A stretch of DNA of 64,000 nucleotides from Candidatus Doudnabacteria bacterium (GCA_028286905.1 JAQBQP010000001.1:79114-143113), one strand, 5' to 3'; shown: positions 1,355 to 64,000, counted from the stretch's first letter. Numbers and translations: made by a program. Notes: generated by a model not told the origin, from the letters alone.

Positions 1355-2599
1355 TTAGGGTAAAAACTTCTTAAAGAGTTTCTTTACTTTATCGACACCG
1401 TCATTATCAAGCAATTTCTTAGCAAAACCGCCAGAAGTTTTTTGACCACCAAAGTATTCTTTTGCCCAAAGGATTAAACCAACCGCTGTAGCAAAGGAAG
1501 GGTCTTCGACCCGGTCAATTATAGTAGTAACGTTTGTAGGTACACCTAGCTGCACTGGCAAGCGCAGCTGCTTTTTAGCTAATTCTAGTATGCCTGGCAT
1601 TTTTGCACCAGCACCGGTAAATACAATCCCTGCCGGCAGTTTACCATCTCTATTAATCTGTTTTAGCTCTTTATTAACCAAATCGAAGATCTCTTCTAAT
1701 CGGGCTTCGGCTATTTCTGCCAAATGATGCCGGGAAACGCTTTCTTCTTCGGTTGAATCGATCTTAGAAAGATCAATTTCGTCACTACGGTTAATATCTC
1801 TAGGAATTGCATGGGCATAATCCTGTTTGACCCGTTCTGCGGTTTCAATGGAAGTACGCAAACCAATTGCGACGTCATTAGTAATGTGTCCGGAACCAAC
1901 TGGGATAATCGATGTGTGCAACAACTGCCCTTCTTCAAAGACAACAAGTCCAGTTGTACCACCACCCATATCTACCAAAGCCACGCCTAATTCTTTTTGG
2001 CGTTTTGTTAAAACTGATTCCGCTGCCGCAAGCGGCGCAAGAACCATGTCATCAACATGCAAACCAGCCTGTTGAATCGCTTTATTTAAATTCTTAATAA
2101 AAGGAACTGCGGCTTGGACAATCACTGTATCAACTTCAAGTCTAATCCCGGTCATACCCAGAGGATCCTTTATCCCCGACTGGCCGTCGACAATAAAGTT
2201 TTTTGGAATAACGTGAATTATTTCTCTATTCTGTGGAATTGAAATCGCCTGCGATGCATCAATCACTCTTATAATATCATTCTCAGTAATTTCGCCGTCC
2301 GCACGAGAAACTGCAATTACACCGTGCGACTCTACTGAAGAAATGTGCGAGCCACCAATTGCAACTGTCGCATGATTAATTTGCACGCCGGTCATTCGCT
2401 CAACTTTTTCCAAAGCTGAAGAGATTGTAGATACTGCTTCTTCGATATCAACTACAACACCTTTCCGAATTCCGGAAGAAGGAGTCTCTCCTACACCTAT
2501 GATGCTTGGCGTACCGGTGCTCTCATCAATCTTTCCAACCACTACTCGAACCGTGGAGGAGCCGATATCCAATCCTACTAAGTATTGTTGCTGTACCAT
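1355..2599 (-). CDS. ftsA: Cell division protein FtsA (actin-like ATPase)
   Basis: Actin-fold motifs (VGLDIGSSTVRVVVG; DMGGGTTGL), located immediately upstream of ftsZ. Confidence 0.9.
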   Translation of the reverse strand: MVQQQYLVGLDIGSSTVRVVVGKIDESTGTPSIIGVGETPSSGIRKGVVVDIEEAVSTISSALEKVERMTGVQINHATVAIGGSHISSVESHGVIAVSRADGEITENDIIRVIDASQAISIPQNREIIHVIPKNFIVDGQSGIKDPLGMTGIRLEVDTVIVQAAVPFIKNLNKAIQQAGLHVDDMVLAPLAAAESVLTKRQKELGVALVDMGGGTTGLVVFEEGQLLHTSIIPVGSGHITNDVAIGLRTSIETAERVKQDYAHAIPRDINRSDEIDLSKIDSTEEESVSRHHLAEIAEARLEEIFDLVNKELKQINRDGKLPAGIVFTGAGAKMPGILELAKKQLRLPVQLGVPTNVTTIIDRVEDPSFATAVGLILWAKEYFGGQKTSGGFAKKLLDNDGVDKVKKLFKKFLP

Positions 2600-2603
2600 G
2601 AAT

Positions 2604-3041
2604 CTATTTTAGTTTTTCTTTTAAAATTTTAGAAATTAATTGGCCGTCTGCTTTGCCTTTTAATTTAGGCATTAACAGCCCCATTGCTTTGCCAAAGTCT
2701 GCAGCGGTCAAAGTTTCGCCGGCAAGCGTTTGATCAACGATCTTGCGAACTTCATCTTCAGAGATTTGTTCTGGCAAATATTTTTGCAAGACGGAAATTT
2801 CTGCCTGCTCTTTTTCTGCCAGCTCCGGCCTTCCACCGCGGGTGAATGCCTCAACCGAGTCTTTGCGACGCTTAACTTCAGAAGCAATCACCGGAATAAT
2901 GTCTTCATCTGTGAAGTCTTTACCCTTAGCAATTTCTTCGTTCATTACTCTCGCCTTAAGCATTCGCAAAGTGTTTAACTCGGTTTGCTGTTTAGCGATC
3001 ATAGCGTTTTTTAAATCCAAAACGATCTGATCTTTTAACAT
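2604..3041 (-). CDS. GatB/YqeY domain-containing protein
   Basis: 145 aa helical protein with C-terminal GatB/YqeY-like region (…GKAMGLLMPKLKGKADGQLISKIL). Confidence 0.6.
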   Translation of the reverse strand: MLKDQIVLDLKNAMIAKQQTELNTLRMLKARVMNEEIAKGKDFTDEDIIPVIASEVKRRKDSVEAFTRGGRPELAEKEQAEISVLQKYLPEQISEDEVRKIVDQTLAGETLTAADFGKAMGLLMPKLKGKADGQLISKILKEKLK

Positions 3042-3052
3042 GGCTGATAAAT

Positions 3053-3307
3053 TTAATATTTACCGTATTTCTTAACTGGCATCTTTCCAAATTTCTTTAG
3101 ATCTTCTCTCTTTTCTTTAAGATCAGCACGTCTGCGAGCATCTTCTCTTACAAATCTCTTGCTCTTCTGAGGTTCGAAAAATCTAATTTTTCTAGCACGA
3201 ACTAAAACACCGCTTTGTTGAATCTTGCGGTTAAATCTACGTAATAAACTTTCAAATGATTCGCCGTCTTTCTTTTTAACTTCTACCACTACTGTCACCC
3301 CCTTCAA
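3053..3307 (-). CDS. rpsU: 30S ribosomal protein S21
   Basis: 84 aa basic protein, ESFE.LLRRFNRK..QSGVL core typical of bS21. Confidence 0.8.
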   Translation of the reverse strand: MKGVTVVVEVKKKDGESFESLLRRFNRKIQQSGVLVRARKIRFFEPQKSKRFVREDARRRADLKEKREDLKKFGKMPVKKYGKY

Positions 3308-27311: not shown

Positions 27312-27471
27312 TTTGATTTCGAATTAATGAACGATTTGCTCGGGATTCACTAACTTCCGGTCTTTGTACACGCGGTTAGAAGAAAGTATATACCCTCTGT
27401 CAACGTTGGGTCAAGGGTCAAGTTGAGGACGCAGAGTCAAGTAAATTGCTAAATAAATTGGTGGCAAAACA

Positions 27472-27503
27472 AAGACACCACTCTCAAAATCAAGAGTGGT
27501 GTC
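27472..27503 (-). terminator. Intrinsic terminator of GC-rich 241-aa gene
   Basis: AGACACCACTCT-caaaatcaa-GAGTGGTGTCT followed on minus strand by TTGTTTTG. Confidence 0.7.
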
Positions 27504-27531
27504 TAGGTTTTATGACAGATCCGGGCGGGAG

Positions 27532-28257
27532 CTAGGCGGACTTCACGGTGCTCTCGGCGACCTCTGCGTCCGCCTCCAGCGCGATCGCTAGCGAGGCGTT
27601 GAGCTTGCCGGCGATCAGCGCGCGGTCGATGATGCTCTCTTCGAGCAACGCGACGTTATGCGCGTGAACGGTCTCGACATGCGCACGAATCGCGGCGAAC
27701 ACCTCCTCGTTCTCGCGATCGAGCGAGTAGAACACATCGTTGTAGAGGACGCACATCTGCACCAGGTACTCCGACGACGCCAAGGTGTGCGCGGCGAGGA
27801 AGTCCTTGAGTGCTTTCAGCTTCAGCCGCGCGTTTCGCTCGTACTGACTGAGGTCCATAGCGTAGTTCTTGGAGAGCTGCTGCACGAACGTGCAGAAGCT
27901 CTCCACCTCCGAGCGCAGACCCTTGGCGTCCTTCATCGTGGCGCGCACGAACTTGAACTGCGCGACCATCAGGTCGTTGAGGATTTCCGGCAGCATCGTG
28001 TAGGCCTTCTGAAGATCTGCGAAATTGTCGGAACTGATGTCGGACCCGACCCGATTGATCGACTCCACAAGCTCGGGAGACAACACGAAGTCCTCGATTC
28101 GCGGCTCCGCCTGCTCGTCTTCCGGAAACAAGGCGGCGAGCTCGGTCGCGAGAGCGCTTGCACGCACCCGCATCTCGACGATCAGGAAGCGTGCACCTTC
28201 GATGTTCAGCGCAACGACGGGTGCGGGAAGCCGGCTCGCAAGGCTGAGATCTGTCAT
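27532..28257 (-). CDS. Hypothetical cytoplasmic protein (241 aa) in GC-rich islet; weak Rx6H (HEPN-like) motif near C-terminus
   Basis: Long ORF with ~62% GC and high GC3, start ATG 28257 preceded by GGAGGA 7 nt upstream (ORF-track upstream extension to 28323 lacks SD). Predicted all-alpha; no family recognised; IRAHVETVH resembles HEPN Rx4-6H. Confidence 0.55.
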   Translation of the reverse strand: MTDLSLASRLPAPVVALNIEGARFLIVEMRVRASALATELAALFPEDEQAEPRIEDFVLSPELVESINRVGSDISSDNFADLQKAYTMLPEILNDLMVAQFKFVRATMKDAKGLRSEVESFCTFVQQLSKNYAMDLSQYERNARLKLKALKDFLAAHTLASSEYLVQMCVLYNDVFYSLDRENEEVFAAIRAHVETVHAHNVALLEESIIDRALIAGKLNASLAIALEADAEVAESTVKSA

Positions 28258-28329
28258 GTGATCATTCCTCCGAATGAGGCCGCTTATCGCGGCGTTGTTG
28301 GGAACTGTTGGCGCAAAAACCAATTTGAT

Positions 28330-28358
28330 ATAGTACCATAAAAGTTATTTTTTGTCAA
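28330..28358 (-). promoter_or_regulatory. Consensus promoter TTGACA-17-TGgTACTAT for the 241-aa gene
   Basis: Read on minus strand: TTGACAaaaaataacttttatggTACTAT, same style as rnj promoter at 33633. Confidence 0.55.
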
Positions 28359-28367
28359 CACAATCAA

Positions 28368-28411
28368 AAAGCCGCCTCCTTTCTATCCGTAGATAGATTG
28401 GTGGCGGCTTT
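28368..28411 (-). terminator. Hairpin separating 69-aa ORF from downstream 241-aa gene promoter
   Basis: AAGCCGCC…GGCGGCTT 8-bp GC stem with inner TATC-cgta-GATA element, followed on minus strand by TTTTT. Confidence 0.55.
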
Positions 28412-28450
28412 CAGTTTACTCACTCGTGGCTTTGCTTGCTGCGCTGTCCC

Positions 28451-28660
28451 TTAGGACTTCAGCAGCGGCAGCCCGGCCATCGCCAGCATCGCCCGCTTCG
28501 AACGACGGATCCTGGTACCGCACTTCTGCGTACCGTTGGCGGTCGAACCCCTCGGCGCCGGATAGCGGCGACGCTCGGGCTGCTGAACGAGCAGCTGGAC
28601 CAGTACGATGCGGGTGATGCCGGCTTCCCGAACGACTTCGCGGCGCAGTGAGACTTTCAT
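28451..28660 (-). CDS. Small basic ORF (69 aa) in GC-rich islet, putative DNA-binding/regulatory protein
   Basis: ATG at 28660 with AAGGAG 7 nt upstream; GC3 ~75% in this frame only; overlapping 117-aa and plus-strand ORFs look like wrong frames. Confidence 0.4.
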   Translation of the reverse strand: MKVSLRREVVREAGITRIVLVQLLVQQPERRRYPAPRGSTANGTQKCGTRIRRSKRAMLAMAGLPLLKS

Positions 28661-28701
28661 GAATCTCTCCTTGAGATTTTGCTGCCTGAGGCAGCGGTGG
28701 C

Positions 28702-28727
28702 CCGAATATAACGACTGTTATATTCGG
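28702..28727. promoter_or_regulatory. Operator-like inverted repeat CCGAATATAAC-gact-GTTATATTCGG in 5' UTR of 69-aa ORF
   Basis: 11-bp perfect arms verified base by base; lies between a minus-strand TTGACA-17-TATCCT promoter (~28805-28835) and the ORF SD. Confidence 0.6.
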
Positions 28728-28901
28728 AATTCTTGTGGTGCAGGGGAAGGAATTGCGAAGAGGCCACAATAAAAATATATTAGCCCTCGCAACTCTTTTC
28801 CCAACACCATATCAAGATTTCTATAGGATACCAGAAACTTGTGTTTTTGTCAAGCTTATGTTCAAGTGCCAAAGAGTAATAAATACGCTATAATTCAAAG
28901 T

Positions 28902-30716: not shown

Positions 30717-31451
30717 CTCCAATCCCTCAACTAGTGGCTGGTTTAGGGCCTCAATCATTGGAGGAGCGACTTGACTCAGATAGCCATACTTCGACTTTCT
30801 GAATCGCGCTTCAATCGAAGTGATCGCATCTGCATGCGAAACACCTGGATGAGAAGGGCCACGATACTCTCGCATTCCGACATAGATATCGACGAAATGC
30901 ACGATCGAGGCAAGCTTCAATTCACGAACTGCGTGAACCCGGTGAGAAATCTGCGCGAGCCTTTCGGGGGTGTGGTGATACCGTACCCCGAAACAAACGC
31001 TGCGCAAGGTTTTCCACTCCGCCTCGGTAAGACCCATACTGCTCCCCAGCTGGATCAGCATCACCTTCGAGAGTTTGGCATGACCCTCTTTGGCGGCGCG
31101 CTCCGATTCCGGCAATGGTCCCTCAATCCGATGACCATGCCAAACGGTCTTACTGAAGTCGTGCAGATAACCGATCAAACTGATCTTGTAAATCTCTTCC
31201 CTACCACACCCCAGCAAGTGGGCAATCACTTCGGAGTATAGTTCTACGTTCTCCAAGTGATCGGCCAGCAAAGCATTGTGGTATCCGGTACGCGGTTCAA
31301 TAAACTCCTGGTCATGTACATTGACCAACTCTTTCACCCGTGACTTCAGGCGAATGAGTCCAGGAGAATCGATACTGATGTGTCCGCGCCGCTCGACTTC
31401 GGGGGTATAGCAAAGAAAAGGGCCCAGCGCCGTCGGCTGTGTCTTGTTCAT
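30699..31451 (-). CDS. HD-domain metal-dependent phosphohydrolase (GC-rich islet)
   Basis: H…HD…H…H…D pattern (ADHLEN; IGYLHDFSK; HGHRIEG; EGHAKLS; HFVDIY); ~52% GC; AGGAGG 6 nt before ATG; 3' end overlaps uvrC by 18 nt (convergent). Confidence 0.6.
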   Translation of the reverse strand: MNKTQPTALGPFLCYTPEVERRGHISIDSPGLIRLKSRVKELVNVHDQEFIEPRTGYHNALLADHLENVELYSEVIAHLLGCGREEIYKISLIGYLHDFSKTVWHGHRIEGPLPESERAAKEGHAKLSKVMLIQLGSSMGLTEAEWKTLRSVCFGVRYHHTPERLAQISHRVHAVRELKLASIVHFVDIYVGMREYRGPSHPGVSHADAITSIEARFRKSKYGYLSQVAPPMIEALNQPLVEGLELQIRG

Positions 31452-31631
31452 TCGATCCTCCTAACAGGTATTACGCCCAAACTAACATACTCTTATTTTA
31501 ATGGAAAAATATTTTTCTACAACCTAGAGATTATTTATATAAAAAATCTCAATTGGTAAAATATTTTGGACAAAATACCTAGAGCGCGCTAACCTTTGAC
31601 TAAAAGCCCTTCTTTTGATACACTTTTCCAT

Positions 31632-38661: not shown

Positions 38662-38989
38662 AAATTAAGTATACCAGAAAAACGAAACGTCCTTGCATGC
38701 TGAGTTGCAAGGACGTCAAAAGGGTTGTGGTTACTAGGAACAGCGGTAAATCACGATCCGCTTTGGCAGACCGAGATGGATCACCTCCTCCAGGAGTGGC
38801 TGGACATAACTCGATTTCTCGAGGTATGCCGGAAATTTGCACCGCGCGCGATCTGGAGAACACGCATCCAGTTTCTACGCTTGTTCGAATGCAAGCCTCT
38901 TCCCATGTGTGATACCGGTTAGGGTGACTAACTATTCCTCCATACAAATGTCGTACCTTTAAATTGTAAATTGCTTAGAATAAAAAAAC

Positions 38990-39027
38990 AAGGGGTTCAT
39001 GATGCATCGTCGCATCACGAACCCCTT
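38990..39027 (-). terminator. Intrinsic terminator of GC-rich 137-aa gene
   Basis: AGGGGTTCATGATGC-loop-GCATCACGAACCCCT (one mismatch) followed on minus strand by GTTTTTTTATT. Confidence 0.65.
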
Positions 39028-39053
39028 CACAGCAGTACGACGTTCACAACACG

Positions 39054-39467
39054 TCAGCTCCAGACCGGCTTTCCGGTTTTCGTCAGCCCCATCTCCCTGC
39101 GAAGTGCATTGCAGGAGAATGTCCGCTCACGAACATGGCCGCAAACCGAAATCTTCAGCTTAACGTGGCGGACGCCGACTGCTTCCGCTCCAATCAGGCC
39201 ACGACCGTGTGTACCCAAGCAGTAGCATGTAGCTGCTCGAGCAATCGGTAAGGCCCAGTTCATCTGTACACCCATCGGACTGTGTCTGCCGAGATCGCGA
39301 ATGACCTGGTGAACTTCACGATCGAATGCCTTGTTCAATTCCTCCCTGGAAATATTGTTACCTGCGTCTGAAGTTGGCAGAGTGCCAACTCCGCTGATAC
39401 CCTTGGTCGAGGCGGGATGCCCTTCTCCGTTTAGGAAGAGCATTGAGGACCCTGGGTTCACCAGCAT
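39054..39467 (-). CDS. Hypothetical Cys/His-containing protein (137 aa) in GC-rich islet
   Basis: ~55% GC ORF with GGGAG upstream of ATG and its own terminator; Gly-rich N-half, C-half has CYCLGTHGRG … VCGHVRERTFSCN; no family recognised. Confidence 0.45.
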   Translation of the reverse strand: MLVNPGSSMLFLNGEGHPASTKGISGVGTLPTSDAGNNISREELNKAFDREVHQVIRDLGRHSPMGVQMNWALPIARAATCYCLGTHGRGLIGAEAVGVRHVKLKISVCGHVRERTFSCNALRREMGLTKTGKPVWS

Positions 39468-39568
39468 TGTGCAGCTCCCGGAAACTGGCCCGATCTAGGA
39501 AAGGGGTCTGCGCGGTGGACCAGGCTAGAACCGCCGCAGATAGGGACTTCACAATACTACGCCCGGGG

Positions 39569-39597
39569 TTGAGATTAGTCAACACTCCTGATATAAT
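39569..39597 (+). promoter_or_regulatory. Consensus promoter TTGAGA-17-TATAAT; -10 ends 6 nt before ychF ATG (leaderless mRNA)
   Basis: Hexamers and spacing read directly. Confidence 0.65.
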
Positions 39598-39603
39598 CTC
39601 TGC

Positions 39604-40662
39604 ATGTCATTTAAAATTGGTATCGTCGGTTTACCAAACGTCGGTAAATCTACTCTCTTTAACGCCATTACAAAGAGCAAAGTCGAGGCGGCTAACTACC
39701 CTTTCGCAACAATCGACCCAAACGTCGGTGTTGTTGCAGTGCCTGATGAACGTTTAGCCAAACTTTCTGCTCAAGAAAACTCTGCAAAGATTGTACCTAC
39801 TGTTATTGAGTTTGTAGACATCGCCGGTTTAGTTGCTGGAGCACACAAGGGCGAAGGCTTGGGAAACAAATTTTTAGCGAACATTCGCGAAGTGGATGCA
39901 ATCATGGAAGTGGTGCGATTTTTTGAAGATAAGAATATTATTCACGTTTCAAACACTGTTGATCCGAAAAGAGATGTCGATACAATTGCCATTGAACTTG
40001 GTTTGGCCGATTTACAAACAGTGGAAAAACGTTTGGAAACCGTAACTAAAGAAGCAAAACAAGGAAACAACCGCGAAGCGGTGCAAAAGAAACTGGCTTT
40101 AGATAAATTTCAAAAAGTCTTGGCTGACGGTTTAATGGCTTCTGAAGCAGTCTTAACTGATGAAGAACAGAAGGCTGTAAAAGAGTTACAACTCTTAACA
40201 ACGAAACCGTTTTTATATGTTGCAAATGTCGCAGAAGATGAGGTAGTAAAATTTACGGATCAAAGCTTTATTCCAATCTCCGCAAAAATTGAGAGCGAGC
40301 TTTCAGAGCTGCCAGACGAAGAAAGAGATATCTACTTAAAAGAGTTAGGTATGAATGAATCTGGCTTAGATAAAATTATTCGAACTGCTTATAAAACTTT
40401 GGGGTTAATTACGTTTATAACGGCTGGTCCGATTGAATCAAAGGCTTGGACGGTACCCGCTGGAACGAAAGCCCCCCAAGCGGCAGGTGTAATCCATACA
40501 GATTTTGAAAAAGGTTTTATTCGGGCTGAAGTAATTGCTTGGGACAAACTATTGGAAGCAGGCGGCTATGCTGTAGCAAGAGATAAAGGCTGGCTGCGCG
40601 TTGAAGGTAAAGAATATGTCATGCAAGATGGAGATGTCGTCCATTTTAGAGTAAACGCTTAA
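39604..40662 (+). CDS. ychF: Ribosome-binding ATPase YchF (Obg-family)
   Basis: [24 protein letters not shown]-loop, coiled-coil insertion, C-terminal TGS domain ([10 protein letters not shown]). Confidence 0.92.
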
Positions 40663-49699: not shown

Positions 49700-49754
49700 C
49701 AGAAATCGGCTAAGCATTGAGCTTAACCACAACCTGAATACCTGAGGAGGATTC

Positions 49755-50372
49755 ATGTTTTCATTGAGCGGAGTTGTTAACGTTATTTCCAAAGACGTAC
49801 TGGTCTGGGGAACCTTCTTGGTGTTCCTGGAAGCATTCTGGGCCTACATGGATCGGATGCTGACGGCCGGCCAAATGCGCAACCGCGGCTTCTTTCGTGG
49901 AATTCCATTCCTGCCGCATCCGGCTTGCTGGGCGGACCTGCTGATCTTCACGCCGCTGATAGCATACCTCTACGGTCGATTCGGATCGACCTGGACGGCT
50001 AGGGAAAGTCTGGTCTGTATGCTGATTGCTCTCTTCATCTGCTACGGCATGACCAAGATGTGGATCGAGGGCGGACTGGAAATCCCGGACTTTGCCACTT
50101 ATCACCACGAGCTGACATTAGCGGGCTGGTTACACACGCTGTATTTCTGGGCGGCATTTGTCGCGGTACTGCTGTTCGCGAACACACCAAACGTCCCCCG
50201 CACCGAATCAGCAATCCTGTTGTCGATCATCGCCGTGCATGTCACCGCTGGAACCGTCTGGCCGAACATCTACACCCGTCGGCCGGCGTTTCCAAGGTCG
50301 ACGGTAGCCACACTGCTTCCCTGCTACGCGTTGATCGCCGCGACTTGGTTCTACCAGGCACATCATCGGTAG
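49755..50372 (+). CDS. Hypothetical integral membrane protein (205 aa, 4-5 TM) in GC-rich islet
   Basis: ~57% GC ORF, GAGGAGG SD, aromatic-rich TM helices; no family recognised. Confidence 0.55.
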   Translation: MFSLSGVVNVISKDVLVWGTFLVFLEAFWAYMDRMLTAGQMRNRGFFRGIPFLPHPACWADLLIFTPLIAYLYGRFGSTWTARESLVCMLIALFICYGMTKMWIEGGLEIPDFATYHHELTLAGWLHTLYFWAAFVAVLLFANTPNVPRTESAILLSIIAVHVTAGTVWPNIYTRRPAFPRSTVATLLPCYALIAATWFYQAHHR

Positions 50373-50404
50373 TTCCCGCTAGCCGCCGTATTCAATGAAA
50401 AAAC

Positions 50405-50450
50405 AAAAAGAGAGAAGTAACTCGCCGATCGGGCTTGTGCTTCTCTCTTT
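50405..50450. terminator. Bidirectional terminator (12-bp stem AAAAGAGAGAAG/CTTCTCTCTTTT with 22-nt loop containing CCGATCGG)
   Basis: Stem checked base by base; T-run on minus side serves the convergent surface-protein gene. Confidence 0.65.
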
Positions 50451-50475
50451 TGTATTCCCCATTATTTTATGTTTA

Positions 50476-57760: not shown

Positions 57761-58777
57761 ATGATCATATTAGCAATAGAAACATCTTGCGACGAGACCG
57801 CAGCAGCTGTGGTTAAGACCCAAAAAAGCGTTATTAAGCCTTTAAGCAGCGTCGTTTCTAGCCAAATTCCTTTACATCGAAAGACCAGAGGTGTTGTTCC
57901 CGAAGTAGCGGCAAGAGCGCATATTCGCAAAATTAACGCGGTTGTTAAAAAAGCCTTAACAGATGCTCGTATAGGGCTAAAATCTATTGATTACCTAGCA
58001 GTAACTAATGGTCCTGGTCTAATTACTTCTCTATTAATAGGCACCGAATATGTTAAAGCTTTGAGCTTAGCCATAAATAAGAAAATCATCCCTACCAACC
58101 ATATGTCTGGGCATCTTTATTCTGCTTTTTTACAAAACCCGCAGCTAAAGCTCCCAAGCATTAATTTGATCGTTTCAGGCGGCCACACTTATATTGTTTT
58201 ATTAGCTTCAAAAAACAAAATTAAAATTATCGGCCAGACAATTGATGATGCAGCCGGTGAAGCATTCGATAAGGTTGCTCGAATGCTAGAGTTACCTTAT
58301 CCTGGCGGACCAGAAATTTCGAAAGCAGCATTACATGGAAAAAGAGATTATGATTTTCCAAGACCAATGCAATATACCAAAGATTACAATTTCAGCTTCG
58401 CTGGATTAAAGACAGCAGTCTTATATAAAATTAGAGATGAGAAGTTAAAGATGTCAGATCCACAAGTAGTTGCTGACCTAGCTTTTTCTTTTCAGAATGC
58501 TGCTGTAGATGTGCTTGTAGCAAAAACAATCCGCGCTGCAAAACAATACAAAGCAAAAAGCATTACTTTATCGGGTGGAGTAGCCGCTAATAAAAAACTG
58601 CGCAAAGATCTAGGGGACGCCGCCAAAAAGGAAAAACTTAAATTGTACGTGCCCGATTTTAAACTTTGCACCGACAATGCATTGATGATTGCAAACGCAG
58701 CAGCAATAAAGCTTCAAGGCGGTTTTAAACCGGTTAATTATACAAAGGTTAAAGTTAATCCAGGCCTAGAAATATAA
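57761..58777 (+). CDS. tsaD: tRNA N6-adenosine threonylcarbamoyltransferase TsaD
   Basis: MIILAIETSCDETAAAVV start, ASKAS/HSGG-family metal-binding motifs (HMSGHLY). Confidence 0.9.
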   Translation: MIILAIETSCDETAAAVVKTQKSVIKPLSSVVSSQIPLHRKTRGVVPEVAARAHIRKINAVVKKALTDARIGLKSIDYLAVTNGPGLITSLLIGTEYVKALSLAINKKIIPTNHMSGHLYSAFLQNPQLKLPSINLIVSGGHTYIVLLASKNKIKIIGQTIDDAAGEAFDKVARMLELPYPGGPEISKAALHGKRDYDFPRPMQYTKDYNFSFAGLKTAVLYKIRDEKLKMSDPQVVADLAFSFQNAAVDVLVAKTIRAAKQYKAKSITLSGGVAANKKLRKDLGDAAKKEKLKLYVPDFKLCTDNALMIANAAAIKLQGGFKPVNYTKVKVNPGLEI

Positions 58778-58784
58778 AAGGAAA

Positions 58785-58813
58785 GCGGCGTGTTCTCAAA
58801 GAGAACACGCCGC
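58785..58813. terminator. Perfect 13-bp GC-rich hairpin GCGGCGTGTTCTC-aaa-GAGAACACGCCGC
   Basis: T-run only on minus-strand side, so probably terminates the minus-strand 127-aa gene. Confidence 0.6.
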
Positions 58814-58832
58814 TAGTACTAACCGTCACGCC

Positions 58833-59216
58833 TCATGCGACCGCGGTGGCGGGGCTGGCTGACCTCCTGACAGCCAAGCTGGTTGGAGGAACGCGCCCCG
58901 CCAAAGCACTCCCCACGCTCGCTTGAACGGCGCCGGGACTTCGATCGGTCGAGCCAGTACTCCAGCAGGAAAACCTGCTGAGGTACAAGTTATGGGTTGT
59001 CAGGGCTGGCCGGATCATACTTGTCGGCTCGAGGATCGGTACATACTCGTCGGTCAATGGACTCGTGAGAGGCATCAACGGATGAGTGTAAACGATCGAC
59101 GAACTGACCGGAACCGTGCTAGCGCCGACGTTCGTAGCAGGTACTCCCGCTGCGATCAAACACATCGCAGCGATTGAACAAGCTACGCGAACCCGGGGTG
59201 ACACTAACTTCATCAC
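58833..59216 (-). CDS. Small secreted hypothetical protein (127 aa) in GC-rich islet
   Basis: AAGGAGGTG SD 2 nt before ATGATG; Sec-type signal peptide (MMKLVSPRVRVACSIAAMCLIAAGVPATNVGA); Ser/Thr/Pro-rich mature part; ~57% GC. Confidence 0.45.
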   Translation of the reverse strand: MMKLVSPRVRVACSIAAMCLIAAGVPATNVGASTVPVSSSIVYTHPLMPLTSPLTDEYVPILEPTSMIRPALTTHNLYLSRFSCWSTGSTDRSPGAVQASVGSALAGRVPPTSLAVRRSASPATAVA

Positions 59217-59494
59217 ACCTCCTTGGTGGATGCTGCAGCTGACCTGCGCGTAAAAACACTATAAGCTAAAAACGACTGCGGGTCAAATGCCACAAAACCT
59301 CATCTTTACAGGGTCAAAAGTATCTGGTAACCTATGAATAAGCCTAATCCGGCGTCACCGGATCTCTAATATAGAGGGGCGTGGAAAGAGCCTTGCAGCA
59401 AGCAAGGTGTAGACTCCACCGCTATCCCGCGTAACAGGAATGATTAAGTAATAAATCAAGTTGGTACCTCGCCTTTGCAATTAACGGCGAACTT

Positions 59495-59520
59495 GAGCAC
59501 CTTTGGTGCTTTTTATTTTT
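59495..59520 (+). terminator. Hairpin plus U-tract 12 nt before valS ATG (attenuator-like element in ~300-nt GC-rich structured leader)
   Basis: GAGCACC-ttt-GGTGCTT followed by TTTTATTTTT; leader 59230-59530 also has ATCCGG-cgtca-CCGGAT hairpin. Confidence 0.5.
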
Positions 59521-59531
59521 GGAAAAATATT

Positions 59532-61715
59532 ATGACAGAAAATTCAAACGAGAAATTAGACGAGATGGCTTCTTCCTACGACTCCCGCGCTACAGAGGAT
59601 GCTATTTATAAACTTTGGGAAGATTCCGGATTTTTTAATCCTGACAATCTTACGGGCGAACCTTTCAGTATGATGTTGCCTCCACCAAATGTCACAGGGA
59701 CTTTGCATATAGGCCACGCCTACGAAGAAACCCTTCAAGACATTGTCATCCGTTTTCAAAGGATGCAGGGCAAGAAAGTTTTGTGGCTTCCAGGGACTGA
59801 CCATGCGCCAATTGCTACTGAGTCTAAAGTGGTTAAGCTTTTAGAAAAAGAAGGTAAAAGAAAAACCGATTTCACCCGAGAAGATTTTCTAGCAAGAGTA
59901 AATAAATTTGCTCAAGAAAGCCATGACACAATAGTAAATCAAGTTAAAAAACTTGGTGCTTCTTTAGACTGGAGTCGCGAAGCTTATACCTTTGATGAAA
60001 AAAGAAACTTTGCAGTTAGAACTGCCTTCAAAACGATGTACGACTTAGGTTTAATATATCGTGGCGATCGAGTTATAAATTGGGACCCAAAAGGTCAGAC
60101 AACAATTTCGGATGACGAAATTGTCCATGAAGAACGCAAGGCTAAAATGTATACTTTCAAATACAGTGCGGACTTCCCTATTTCGATTTCTTCGACCCGA
60201 CCGGAAACTAAAGTTGGCGACGTTGCAGTTGCCGTTCATCCTGCTGACGACCGCTATAAACAATTTGTTGGCAAGGAATACGATGCGATTTTCTGCGAAG
60301 TTCCAATCCATATTAAAATTATTGCTGACGAAAGCGTAGAAAAAGATTTTGGCACCGGCGCTTTAGGTGTTACCCCTGCACACTCAATGATCGATTATGA
60401 AATTGCTCAAAGACATAATCTTCCACTTAAAACAGTTATTAATGAGTTCGCAAAGATGACGGTAGAAGGCCTTTTGAAAGATAAAAAAACTACGGACGCA
60501 CGGGAAATTGTTGTTGAATGGTTACGCTCTCAAAATCTTCTGGAAAAAGAAGAAGAGGTTGTTCAAAACGTCTCTACTTCGGAGAGAACTGGCGCAGTAA
60601 TTGAACCTTTGCCAAAACTACAATGGTTTATAGATGTAAATAAGGACTTTGCTTTCCCACACTCCGAATTAGCGGGAATCAAACAAGGTGACGCAATTAG
60701 CTTGAAAAAGCTAATGCGTCAGGTCGTGGAAAGTGGCGCAATTAAATTTAGCCAAGAAAATTATCAAAAAGTTTATTTTAATTGGATTAACAATCTTAGG
60801 GACTGGTGTATTAGCAGGCAAATCTGGTTTGGCCATCGTATCCCAGTGTGGTATAAAGATTCGGAAATTTACTGCGGCATAGAAGCTCCTACTGGTGAAG
60901 GTTGGACTCAGGATTCAGACACCTTAGATACTTGGTACTCATCCGGACTCTGGACGACTAGCACCTTGGGTTGGCCGGAACAAACTAAAGATTTCAAAAC
61001 TTACCATCCAACTTCTTTGGTAATGCCGGGCTATGAAATTCTGTTCCCCTGGGTTGCTCGGATGATTTTAATGACAACTAGTTTAACCGGACAAATCCCT
61101 TTTAAAGAAGTTTTACTGCATGGAATTGTTCGCGACAATAAAGGTAGAAAATTTAGTAAGTCTTTAGGTAATGGTGTAGACCCTTTAGAAATAATTGAGC
61201 AGTACGGAGCTGACGCTTTGCGGATTGCTTTAATTTTTAGCACTGCTCCCGGTAACGATGTAATATTTGACGAGCAAAAAGTTAAAGGAATGAAGCATTT
61301 CGCAAACAAGATTTGGAATATTGCGAGATTTGTTTTAGCAAACACCGATACTGCTTTAATGAACACAACTAGTTCCAGGAAACCAGAAGGCCTAACAGAA
61401 GCTGACAAGGAGGTATTGGCAAAGCTAGATGAGGTTGTGATTGCAACAACTGCGCACATTGAAGCATCCCGTTTCCACGAAGCGGCTCAAGCTTTATACC
61501 AATTTGCTTGGTACGAATTTGCAGATAAATACATTGAGGCGAGCAAAGAACAATTGTTGGATGCAAATCAGAAAGAAAACACACAAAAGATTCTGCTTTA
61601 CAATTTGGATGTAACACTACGTTTATTGCATCCGTTCATGCCGTTCGTCACCGAAGAACTTTGGAAAAATCTAAAGAAAGAGAAGCTGCTGTTAATAAGC
61701 GAGTGGCCTAAATAG
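59532..61715 (+). CDS. valS: Valyl-tRNA synthetase (short, CPR-type)
   Basis: HIGH (TGTLHIGHAYEET), KMSKS (KFSKSLGN), editing domain; 727 aa. Confidence 0.9.
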   Translation: MTENSNEKLDEMASSYDSRATEDAIYKLWEDSGFFNPDNLTGEPFSMMLPPPNVTGTLHIGHAYEETLQDIVIRFQRMQGKKVLWLPGTDHAPIATESKVVKLLEKEGKRKTDFTREDFLARVNKFAQESHDTIVNQVKKLGASLDWSREAYTFDEKRNFAVRTAFKTMYDLGLIYRGDRVINWDPKGQTTISDDEIVHEERKAKMYTFKYSADFPISISSTRPETKVGDVAVAVHPADDRYKQFVGKEYDAIFCEVPIHIKIIADESVEKDFGTGALGVTPAHSMIDYEIAQRHNLPLKTVINEFAKMTVEGLLKDKKTTDAREIVVEWLRSQNLLEKEEEVVQNVSTSERTGAVIEPLPKLQWFIDVNKDFAFPHSELAGIKQGDAISLKKLMRQVVESGAIKFSQENYQKVYFNWINNLRDWCISRQIWFGHRIPVWYKDSEIYCGIEAPTGEGWTQDSDTLDTWYSSGLWTTSTLGWPEQTKDFKTYHPTSLVMPGYEILFPWVARMILMTTSLTGQIPFKEVLLHGIVRDNKGRKFSKSLGNGVDPLEIIEQYGADALRIALIFSTAPGNDVIFDEQKVKGMKHFANKIWNIARFVLANTDTALMNTTSSRKPEGLTEADKEVLAKLDEVVIATTAHIEASRFHEAAQALYQFAWYEFADKYIEASKEQLLDANQKENTQKILLYNLDVTLRLLHPFMPFVTEELWKNLKKEKLLLISEWPK

Positions 61716-61791: not shown

Positions 61792-61878
61792 CCTATATCG
61801 TTCTAGTTCGAAAAACGCCAAGGAGGCCTCATAGATAACAACAAAGGTCTCTGGCAACCCACTTTCTCGAGGTGCAGA

Positions 61879-62343
61879 ATGCGTAAGTACTTAGGGACTC
61901 TATTTTTAGTTAGCTTGATCGTGATGATAGGCGTCTCGGCCTTAGTCCTCAGATCGTCGCCTAAACCTGGCAGCCGCCTTGCTCTGCAGCATCAATGGGC
62001 AGATTCATCGCGGCTCTCTGGACGAGAGATCAGAGTTCTTGCAATGATCCCTGACACCGCGCGCTGCGCAAACTTCTACAACTCGCTCAATCGCCTGGGT
62101 TGGGTCCTGCTTCAGACAGAGAGCGATGACTCCAGCTTCTACTCTCATATGACCAAGGAGGATTACGCCCGTGCCGCCCGAACAATCGTGGAGCGCGACA
62201 GCGCCTACCGGCAGCTGTGCACGAGTAACCGTACATTCGTAGCGACCCAGAAATACAAGCTTGCAGTCGCGCGCGCAAGGGAGGTGCTTGACCTGGAGAA
62301 AGCCTACTACGCGGCGTTAACCAACTCGAGCAGCTTGCGGTAG
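61879..62343 (+). CDS. Hypothetical membrane-anchored protein (154 aa) in GC-rich islet
   Basis: N-terminal signal-anchor/TM (LGTLFLVSLIVMIGVSALVL) then soluble alpha-helical domain; ~56% GC; own promoter and terminator. Confidence 0.5.
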   Translation: MRKYLGTLFLVSLIVMIGVSALVLRSSPKPGSRLALQHQWADSSRLSGREIRVLAMIPDTARCANFYNSLNRLGWVLLQTESDDSSFYSHMTKEDYARAARTIVERDSAYRQLCTSNRTFVATQKYKLAVARAREVLDLEKAYYAALTNSSSLR

Positions 62344-62371
62344 ATACACCCGCGCCGATGTTGTTACAACG

Positions 62372-62402
62372 AAAACGCCCCGACTTGCAATCGGGGCGTT
62401 TT
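62372..62402. terminator. Bidirectional GC-rich terminator shared by the 154-aa gene and convergent rpoC
   Basis: AAAACGCCCCGA-cttgcaa-TCGGGGCGTTTT. Confidence 0.75.
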
Positions 62403-62450
62403 GTTATTTATCAACAGTTTATACCGTAGGGTTGATACCTAGGGTGAACC

Positions 62451-64000
62451 TTAGGCTTCGACTTCGTCTTGGCCTGGAGCCTTTAGATCGGCGTCGATTA
62501 GTTCCTCTGCAACAACGGGGTTGAACCCGGTTCCTGCTGGAATCAACTTACCGATGATAACGTTTTCCTTCAAACCTCTTAAGGTATCGGTCTTAGCTGC
62601 TAAAGCCGCTTCGATCAATACACGCGTGGTTTCTTGGAAGGATGCCGCTGCTAGGAATGATTCGGTGTTCAAGGAAACTTTTGTAATACCCATCAAAAGT
62701 TGTTCTGCTTGGGCAGCCTTGCGGCCATCGGCAACTAACTTTTCATTGGTGTCATTCAAACGTGCCTTGTCGATCAAATCGCCTACTAGGAATTCAGAAT
62801 CGCCTGCTTCCAAGATTCTCATCTTAGAGAACATTTGGCGAACGATAACTTCAACGTGTTTATCGTGAATATTCTGACCTTGAGAAACGTAAATATCTTG
62901 AACTTCTTTTACGATATAGTTTTGCGCATCTTGGGTACCGCGCAAGCCTAATATTTGTCCAAGGTTTAAGTTACCTTCGGTCATCTGCTGACCCTTAGTA
63001 ACTAAGTCATGATCTTTAATAGATAGAGAGAACGAAGTTGGGATAGTGTATTCACGAACATGCTCATCGGATTCTCGAACAACAATAATTTTGTTGTTTT
63101 GCATGTGAACAATACCTGCAGCCTTAGCTTTTACAGCCTTACCAGCGCCGTTAATAAACAATGCTTCGTTTTCTGTAACCTTATCGCCATCTTTTAATTG
63201 AGTTTGAGCTTCATCCAAAGTGTACTCATCTTTCTCTGCGCCTTCGCTTTGAATTCGGACTAAGTATTCTTTGTTGTTAGGCTTGCTGATATAAGCAGTA
63301 CCATCAATATCAGAAACTGTAGCCTGACCTTTTGGTTCACGAGCTTCAAACAATTCTTCAACACGAGGCAAACCTTGAGTAATGTCGACACCCGCTACAC
63401 CTCCAGTGTGGAATGTACGCATCGTCAACTGTGTTCCTGGCTCACCAATCGCCTGAGCAGCCACGATTCCTACCGCAGCTCCAAGCTTAACCATCTCATT
63501 GAATCCAAGGTCGTAACCGTAACATAGACGGCAAACGCCTCGAACCAATTTACATTTCAAAACTGAACGACATTTTACGGAATCAATTCCGGAATCGGCT
63601 GCACCGATCAACTTAGAAATGTGTTCGTCTAAACCTTCGTTTTTCTTTACCAAAACTTTACCGTCATTATCCTTAATGTCTTCAGCGGCAACACGACCAA
63701 ACAAACGACGGTCGAACCCTTTGTTCATTTGTTCAGCCATTGCGCGAGTTACATCAATATAATCTAAAGTTCCACAATCCTCTGAATTCACAACGATATC
63801 TTGAGCAACGTCTACTAAACGTCTAGTTAAGTAACCAGCGTCCGCTGTTCTCAAAGCTGTGTCGGACATACCTTTACGAGAACCGTGAGTAGAAATGAAG
63901 TATTCCAATACTGTTAGACCTTCTTTGAAGGAACCTTTTACAGGAAGTTCAATAACGTCTCCGGCAGGGTTTACCACTAAACCTTTCATACCGGCCATCT
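62451..64000 (-). CDS. rpoC: DNA-directed RNA polymerase subunit beta' (C-terminal portion; gene continues past window end)
   Basis: Conserved beta' C-terminal regions (…[12 protein letters not shown]…, trigger-loop/jaw segments, [17 protein letters not shown]); no N-terminus within window. Confidence 0.9.

Follow-up and report, generated by a model that had tools for sequence, protein, structure and literature searches.

What does the sequence directly upstream of valS do in a Candidatus Doudnabacteria genome, and is the synthetase gene switched by the RNA that it encodes? The locus lies in a DNA stretch of 64,000 nt (GCA_028286905.1 JAQBQP010000001.1:79114-143113, hereafter the window, with all coordinates counted from its first letter). 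The T-box is the textbook example of a structured RNA that reads another one, and an earlier note on this DNA had proposed a transcription-attenuating leader, probably a T-box, at 59217-59531. That proposal is supported by a specifier hairpin, a T-box bulge, a Stem II S-turn and a IIA/B pseudoknot, and the valS leader is probably a riboswitch of the T-box type, responsive to uncharged tRNA-Val(GAC) and equipped with an ultrashort Stem I and an intrinsic terminator.

Fold energy sets the region apart only to a modest degree (z = -2.1 over 59217-59531, -2.6 over 59340-59531), and the leader stands beyond chance because of comparative data rather than fold energy alone. Related valS loci (36; these and the metagenome loci below carry L numbers) were taken from species-representative genomes, and the valS upstream region was scanned in 31 of them. 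TGGNACC occurs within 150 nt before valS in four (L002, L003, L004 and L024), and these four share every element of the window leader. A pattern built from the five sequences returned 27 loci from metagenome contigs, i.e. seven true leaders and 20 coding-sequence false positives that were discarded, giving a set of 12 leaders (the window, four genome loci and seven metagenome contigs). The gene directly downstream is valS in the window and in all eight other leaders with enough downstream DNA, four of which were found by the pattern. Two covariance models were used, R1 from all 12 leaders and R2 built without the window and its closest relative L002 (ValS 77% identical to window ValS). R1 matches the window at 59340-59470, and the leave-out model R2 recovers the same segment at 58.4 bits (E ~8e-11), the next match in the window having an E-value of 0.35. 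R1 was run on the window and on 43 loci, together 388 kb, and detected no further leader; the window holds no other intergenic TGGNACC. The elements of the leader are as follows.

59305..59333, plus strand: putative valS leader promoter (-35 TTTACA 59305-59310, 17-nt spacer, -10 TAACCT 59328-59333)
59340..59531, plus strand: valS leader RNA, ~192 nt (covariance models, unconstrained fold)
59342..59380, plus strand: base helix P0, GCCU 59342-59345 with GGGC 59377-59380, enclosing Stem I and a hairpin, H2 (minimum-energy fold)
59347..59363, plus strand: ultrashort Stem I, AUCCGG 59347-59352, loop CGUCA, CCGGAU 59358-59363
59354-59356, plus strand: Specifier GUC (Val), followed by A 59357, in the apical loop of Stem I
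59364-59376, plus strand: H2, a variable, optional hairpin (minimum-energy fold)
59381..59419, plus strand: Stem II, base helix GUGGA 59381-59385 with UCCAC 59415-59419
59409-59413, plus strand: GUAGA of the S-turn-like internal loop of Stem II, opposite GAAAGA (GAA within G84-A89)
59390-59408, plus strand: apical hairpin of Stem II (fully compensated in L002)
59420-59422 with 59429-59431, plus strand: Stem IIA, CGC with GCG (covariation)
59425-59427 with 59437-59439, plus strand: pseudoknot IIB, UCC with GGA (complementarity in 12 of 12 leaders)
59443..59448, plus strand: linker motif AUUAAG between pseudoknot and discriminator (invariant in the alignments)
59456..59496, plus strand: discriminator, A1-bulge-A2 (segment folds)
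59456-59461 with 59491-59496, plus strand: helix A1, UCAAGU with ACUUGA
59462-59468, plus strand: T-box bulge of 7 nt, UGGUACC, between A1 and A2
59469-59473 with 59486-59490, plus strand: helix A2, UCGCC with GGCGA
59495..59520, plus strand: intrinsic terminator, GAGCACC-UUU-GGUGCUU 59495-59511 with U-tract to 59520 (terminator scan)
59532..61715, plus strand: valS, the regulated gene, valyl-tRNA synthetase of 727 aa (Pfam tRNA-synt_1 and Anticodon_1 on record)

The unconstrained minimum-energy fold of the window leader contains P0, Stem I, H2, Stem II, IIA, A1/bulge/A2 and the terminator; the pseudoknot cannot show in such a fold. The hairpin ATCCGG-cgtca-CCGGAT that had been remarked upon earlier is present at 59347-59363 and constitutes Stem I. 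Neither a Val specifier nor a confident T-box consensus had been recognized at that time, and the specifier can now be placed in the loop of this very hairpin, as GUC followed by A occupies the 3' side of the Stem I apical loop in 12 of 12 leaders (five of them found via ValS homology). Published T-boxes carry a Specifier codon followed by a purine, with a strong preference for C at the third position, and a functional S-turn string that in Nocardia farcinica ileS is A39-A38-A69-G70-A71, next to G67-U68; the F-box CCGUCA is held in a compact IIA/B pseudoknot, and in the 7-nt bulge UGGN pairs with the tRNA's NCCA terminus while ACC stabilizes the fold, the consensus being AGGGUGGNACCGCG (PMC7583486; PMC11297988; PMC7778990). 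In agreement with these features, the GUC codon fits the third-position preference, GUAGA equals the published S-turn string, and the window T-box sequence agrees with AGGGUGGNACCGCG at 11 of 14 positions. GUAGA is near-invariant, with 11 of 12 leaders having G at its third position, and the F-box-like stretch reads CGCGUAA in the window and CCGU(U/C)A in relatives. The likeness of a GGTACC/TGGT segment to the T-box bulge, drawn in the earlier note, is substantiated by TGGTACC at 59462-59468, which lies between helices A1 and A2, both of which covary. Eleven of the 12 leaders have UGGUACC as the bulge, L002 having UGGCACC (3065-3071), and A73, which fits UGGU, is found in five tRNA-Val(GAC) genes of related genomes (the organism's own tRNA-Val gene lies outside the window). 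H2 is absent from L004, L058, L049 and L048. The AUUAAG linker is independent evidence only in the window, L002, L003, L004 and L024, being required by the pattern elsewhere.

The comparative alignment of valS upstream regions, which had been suggested as a check, reveals a leader that is both conserved and covarying, so that neither lack of conservation nor lack of covariation can be held against it. In the 12-leader alignment, which was made with the covariance model and is hence biased towards the model structure, standard pairing is seen in 98.5% of the 200 cells (17 pairs), and two-sided changes are seen in 10 of the 17 pairs (37 cells). The observed pairing or covariation score is reached in none of 500 shuffles, and when partners are slid by one to three columns as a control, pairing drops to 32-46%. 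Two-sided changes are present in all five pairs of the Stem II base and in three of the six pairs of Stem I, whose strands vary and remain complementary (AUCCGG/CCGGAU, CUGUGG/CCAUAG, CUCUGG/CCAGAG, CUAUGG/CCAUAG and UUUCGG/CCGGAA, among others). The P0 pair at alignment columns 10/55 is CG in five sequences, UA in four and UG in one, and the third pair of IIA is GC in ten and CG in two. The apical hairpin of Stem II is compensated between L002 and the window (CCUUGC/GCAAGG versus CCGGC/GCCGG). The pseudoknot is complementary in all 12 leaders through nine different sequences (GCUGG/UCAGC, ACCU/AGGU and GAUUGC/GCAAUC among them), with a summed length of 53 against 38 +/- 2.7 when the tails are dealt to other loops (none of 2000 controls as high). 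Helix A1 exists in five different sequences, all complementary, and bulge-open folding recovers A1-bulge-A2 in 11 of the 11 leaders that hold the discriminator. Eight G-U cells, spread over five pairs, would be A-C on the other strand; these cells and the U-tract fix the plus strand as the one that acts. The architecture of the leader, its conservation and covariation, and its association with valS are direct observations.

The extent of the leader is smaller than the ~300 nt first proposed. Reckoned from a conserved promoter at 59305-59333 it measures rather ~192 nt (59340-59531), and 59217-59290 at the 5' end of the proposed segment holds the Shine-Dalgarno (SD) sequence, 5' UTR and promoter of a divergent open reading frame (ORF) on the minus strand. 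L002 has the same promoter hexamers and spacing as the window, and a -10-like hexamer lies 6-13 nt upstream of a conserved AAGC in 12 of 12 leaders, with five or six of six positions of TATAAT matched in nine of the 12 and a TTTACA-like -35 as the usual partner. In the window itself the -10 is weak (three of six positions of TATAAT) and the promoter scan made no call there. The transcript probably starts at ~59340, as judged from the promoter position. The GC richness previously ascribed to the leader belongs mainly to the neighbouring island at 58700-59315, the first 131 nt of the leader having a GC content of 0.49.

Several observations weigh against the T-box assignment. The Rfam T-box family RF00230 has no match in the window even at E <= 10, none in seven whole loci, and none in L024 or L048, and its gathering cut-off of 93 bits is reached by no relative tested. 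The Rfam check was thus empty for the window and gave a weak match in the relative L058, where RF00230 scores 24.5 bits against the cut-off of 93 (E 7e-4 in a 211-nt search), 5'-truncated and covering model positions 56-219. This one match counts in favour of a T-box, as its alignment takes in Stem II, IIA, Stem III and the antiterminator, and RF00230 is the only family below E 0.01 in L058. A weak SpR19 Rfam match in the window had aligned nothing beyond the T-box motif and was set aside. The miss by RF00230 is probably due to the absence of a long Stem I, which makes up the first third of the model. Stem I is here a 6-bp hairpin on a 3-5-bp base helix, which leaves no space for a distal platform that would touch the tRNA elbow. 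No K-turn is recognizable at the base of Stem I and no tandem G-A motif was seen by eye, and a K-turn is described as essential for short Stem I-Stem II modules (PMC7583486). Ten of the 12 leaders lack Stem III. The pattern used on the metagenome contigs fixed GTCACC, ATTAAG and TGGYACC, and these motifs are not independent evidence in the seven leaders found with it. Finally, the UGGC bulge of L002 would mismatch A73, from which the T-box assignment predicts either G73 in the tRNA-Val of that organism, whose gene lies off the contig, or a tolerated mismatch.

A further set of observations concerns the switch itself. The terminator GAGCACC-ttt-GGTGCTT noted earlier is present at 59495-59511 with a T-run to 59520, and is called by the terminator scan; as had also been stated, valS begins close behind it, with ATG at 59532, 11 nt past the T-run, and no good SD. 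The terminator of L002 carries a compensatory change (GAACACC/GGUGUUU). Because the terminator ends 11 nt before the ATG, valS needs read-through. The terminator is the only plausible output, since no promoter fits into 59520-59532, no SD lies near the hairpin, and the hairpin is distant from the gene elsewhere (100-560 nt from the valS ATG in L003, L044, L048 and L062). SD sequestration was accordingly rejected, there being no SD near the hairpin and long distances from hairpin to ATG in several members. An internal valS promoter over the terminator (TTGAGC-15-TATTTT) was likewise dismissed for its poor spacing, its inconsistency across members and the lack of a scan call.

Three arrangements of antiterminator and terminator are found. 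In L048 the overlap is full, and the A1 3' strand CCUCUC doubles as the 5' strand of the terminator, which is the classical T-box layout. In the window, the terminator starts with the two nucleotides that end the A1 3' strand (GA, 59495-59496), and such abutting helices with an overlap of 2-3 nt (GA or GAA) also occur in L002, L024, L058, L044 and L062; L040 has the same junction, after which the contig ends. In L003 and L004/L060, the strand that leads into the U-tract, AGUGCUU or AGGUGUU, finds its partner in AAGCAC(C) 5' of A1, so that the whole A1-bulge-A2 lies inside a terminator-like stem. The terminator hairpin of the window has a stability of -8.5 kcal/mol with the shared GA and -5.6 kcal/mol without it. 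Across the six small-overlap leaders with a complete hairpin, the values are -7.9 to -11.2 kcal/mol, which is marginal, and -5.5 to -7.3 kcal/mol without the shared nucleotides, i.e. 2.2-3.9 kcal/mol weaker. These junctions also speak against the proposed switch. When the discriminator-terminator segment is folded alone, both helices form together in the five leaders with the terminator in the fold, and, as A1/A2 and the terminator of the window share 2 nt, the mutual exclusion of classical T-boxes is not evident.

The elements suggest the following mechanism for the T-box-type leader. GUC in the loop of Stem I would be base-paired by the anticodon of uncharged tRNA-Val(GAC), and the Stem II S-turn (GAA/GUAGA), placed by the IIA/B pseudoknot, would brace the codon-anticodon helix from the side. 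The free ACCA end of the tRNA would then pair with UGGU and stabilize A1. An A1 locked by tRNA would keep GA from the basal pairs of the terminator, and the remaining 5-bp hairpin should terminate poorly; the terminator hairpin begins without a spacer after A1, and steric hindrance of its formation is also possible. Binding of tRNA, sensing of its charging and relief of termination are what these sequence elements would predict. The step in which a tRNA-locked A1 would weaken a borderline terminator, as we infer, is the main weakness of the model. As a tentative reading, which we rate somewhat below an even chance, the leaders may form an unrecognized T-box class of the candidate phyla radiation (CPR), in which the terminator decision is made co-transcriptionally without contact to the tRNA elbow and, in most members, an A1 that abuts the terminator instead of sequestering its strand points to a different switching principle; if so, switching would proceed by destabilizing a marginal hairpin or by a steric block beside a rigid tRNA-A1 stack.

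As a separate observation, the loop and 3' strand of the terminator read UGGUG in the window (59504-59508), L044 and L048, the exact complement of the CACCA end of tRNA-Val, and thereby look like the T-box bulge repeated; GGUG is found in L002 and L004, and the string is absent from L058, L062 and L003. It could be a second contact to the tRNA end, or a chance product of being the complement of CACC.

The tsaD-valS gap is 750 nt long (tsaD, the upstream plus-strand neighbour, ends at 58777) and has a GC content of 0.54-0.63 at its 5' end (island 58700-59315) versus ~0.40 in the flanking genes. It consists of two divergent units, the valS leader and a minus-strand ORF unit with the following features.

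58784..59286, minus strand: divergent unit of promoter, SD, ORF and terminator, lying outside the leader and filling the 5' third of 59217-59531
59286..59258, minus strand: promoter-like TTGACC-17-TATAGT (promoter scan)
59224..59218, minus strand: SD AAGGAGG, belonging to the divergent ORF
59213..58833, minus strand: divergent ORF of 126 aa, GC 0.59 (no Pfam match)
58814..58784, minus strand: terminator of the divergent unit, 14 bp, with a T-tail on the minus strand only

A comparison of this gap with that of L002 reveals conservation only at 59213-59525 (75% nucleotide identity). L002 has a matching minus-strand promoter in a divergent unit of its own (2230-2880, minus strand), but the GC-rich ORF behind it is unrelated to that of the window and has no Pfam match. 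Both unrelated ORFs (126 aa in the window, 156 aa in L002) are framed by a TTGAC[CT]-17-TATAGT promoter, a strong SD and a strong terminator, have N-termini that resemble signal peptides, and occupy the same position, with tsaD on one side and the valS leader on the other; the site may hold a replaceable cassette or a fast-evolving secreted protein. A single large non-coding RNA over the whole 750-nt gap (fold z = -8.9 and -9.5) was considered and rejected, because conservation in L002 is confined to the last ~310 nt, because the GC-rich part is an ORF island whose L002 counterpart is unrelated and not unusually structured (z = -0.8, against -5.3 for the unusually structured window copy), and because Rfam finds nothing in the gap. 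The window contains six such GC-rich islands (27392-28777, 30789-31484, 38681-39646, 49732-50466, 58703-59315 and 61864-62469), two of which flank valS, with GC contents of 0.52-0.57 and peaks to 0.68 versus 0.41 overall. Each holds an ORF without a Pfam match and with a third-position GC content of 0.58-0.81 versus 0.30-0.36 in valS and tsaD, and the islands give the impression of high-GC genes acquired by a reduced, AT-rich genome. Of the other ORFs in the window, the nine largest that were scanned include no aminoacyl-tRNA synthetase.

Extra DNA is seen between terminator and valS in some relatives, namely an inverted-repeat insert of ~100 nt in L003 (3907-3991), ~560 nt including a 167-aa ORF in L062, and ~110 nt of short repeats after the terminator in L044. 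Most related Paceibacterota valS genes lack a leader, and in the 20 nt upstream of the ATG they show aaaTGcTATAtT, then 6-8 nt, then the ATG (L007, L009, L011, L012, L014, L016, L018, L020, L021, L028, L031 and other valS loci). With an extended -10 so near the ATG, the valS mRNA would be leaderless in these loci; the T-box leader and the extended -10 promoter look like alternative solutions in related genomes.

One alternative is a T-box-derived binder of tRNA-Val in which the hairpin and U-tract are not the regulated step, the leader serving instead as a constitutively terminated small RNA or in control of translation or mRNA stability after read-through. A1/A2 and the terminator do coexist in the segment fold and share only 2-3 nt in seven leaders, the truncated hairpin would still stand directly before the U's, valS lacks an SD, and the known T-boxes with ultrashort Stem I are translational (10.1101/2023.02.28.530422). 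However, a hairpin 100-560 nt from the ATG, as in L003, L044, L048 and L062, cannot mask a ribosome site, the small-overlap terminators are all marginal and become 2-4 kcal/mol less stable once the shared nucleotides are removed, the switch of L048 is of the canonical full-overlap kind, and 59520-59532 in the window leaves no room for a promoter. On balance we regard this explanation as unlikely, although it is the most serious of the alternatives.

Less probable still is an operator for a protein, e.g. ValRS binding in the manner of Escherichia coli thrS, with a hairpin that mimics the anticodon arm and a T-box likeness that is coincidental. The failure of the Rfam T-box model on the window would suit such an operator, as would the loop CUGUCA, which resembles an anticodon loop (a U33-like U, three bases and an A37-like A). 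Read as an anticodon, however, GUC denotes Asp and not Val, and the window loop has 5 nt and lacks the U; a mimic of the tRNA-Asp anticodon arm was rejected as well. Moreover, coincidence would have to account for the joint occurrence of the S-turn, the F-box pseudoknot, UGGUACC between covarying helices and the terminator, and for RF00230 being the sole family to match L058 below E 0.01. The good minus-strand promoter at 59286..59258, conserved between the window and L002, raises the question whether the conserved sequence serves the minus strand as promoter or 5' region of the divergent gene, with incidental structure on the plus strand. We give this almost no credence, as conservation runs 240 nt past that promoter up to the valS ATG, 10 of 12 leaders have no adjoining GC-rich minus-strand gene, and the G-U pairs and U-tract are specific to the plus strand. 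A T-box-type riboswitch acting through the terminator is therefore the reading that we retain.

How does the retained riboswitch compare with known T-boxes? T-boxes with an ultrashort Stem I are described for ileS of the Actinobacteria Mycobacterium and Nocardia (Sherwood et al. 2015, as summarized in PMC7583486 and 10.1101/2023.02.28.530422). The valS leader shares with them a Specifier in the apical loop of a short 5' hairpin followed by a purine, the absence of a distal platform for the tRNA elbow, a Stem II S-turn with GAA opposite GUAGA, a UGGN-ACC bulge, and a IIA/B pseudoknot whose F-box reads CCGU(U/C)A in relatives and CGCGUAA in the window. The positions in L004, a leader without H2, nearly coincide with those of N. 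farcinica (G36-A38 with 37-39, G62-A66 with 67-71 and C83-A88 with 87-92). It differs in preceding valS and carrying the Val codon GUC rather than serving ileS and tRNA-Ile, in having an intrinsic terminator with U-tract rather than an SD sequestrator, in its host, a CPR bacterium rather than an actinobacterium, and in the lack of a recognizable K-turn, the usual absence of Stem III and the extra H2 in some members. Canonical transcriptional T-boxes (RF00230; Bacillus subtilis tyrS and valS) are likewise leaders of synthetase genes with a gene-matched codon, Stem II with a IIA/B pseudoknot, and a terminator with U-tract. In contrast to these, the leader here has no long Stem I with K-turn, no specifier internal loop and neither AG bulge nor distal loop, and the terminator, which in canonical T-boxes overlaps most of the antiterminator 3' strand, overlaps it by 2-3 nt. 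The glyQS T-boxes are also minimal transcriptional T-boxes that have dropped one module and still switch a terminator, although they keep the long Stem I and drop Stem II and the pseudoknot, whereas the valS leader does the opposite.

In published accounts, the long Stem I platform is generally required by transcriptional T-boxes, intermediate or ultrashort Stem I is a trait of translational T-boxes, which have been identified mainly in Actinobacteria (PMC7583486), and all ultrashort T-boxes regulate ileS (preprint 10.1101/2023.02.28.530422). The class II model of TBDB was run genome-wide on Actinobacteria only, with the addition of class I matches with truncated Stem I (PMC7778990). Within the literature searched in full text, no paper links T-box riboswitches with names of the candidate phyla radiation or Patescibacteria. 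Within the limited view of a comparison that rests on a review and a preprint, the apical-loop Specifier, valS, terminator and CPR host thus appear to be a new combination. CPR organisms are difficult to work on and, to our knowledge, have yielded very few known regulatory RNAs. T-boxes may be undercounted in surveys of reduced genomes, because this class escapes the Rfam model and the genome-wide TBDB search with class II covered Actinobacteria only. Two generalizations would need amending, namely that T-boxes with an ultrashort Specifier hairpin are confined to ileS, translational and mostly actinobacterial, and that transcriptional T-boxes generally need an elbow-binding Stem I platform. 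A terminator class free of elbow contact, if true, would also conflict with the view that the Stem I platform is needed for fast tRNA capture, and the ~130-nt module with its terminator may offer a minimal system for how tRNA capture keeps pace with transcription.

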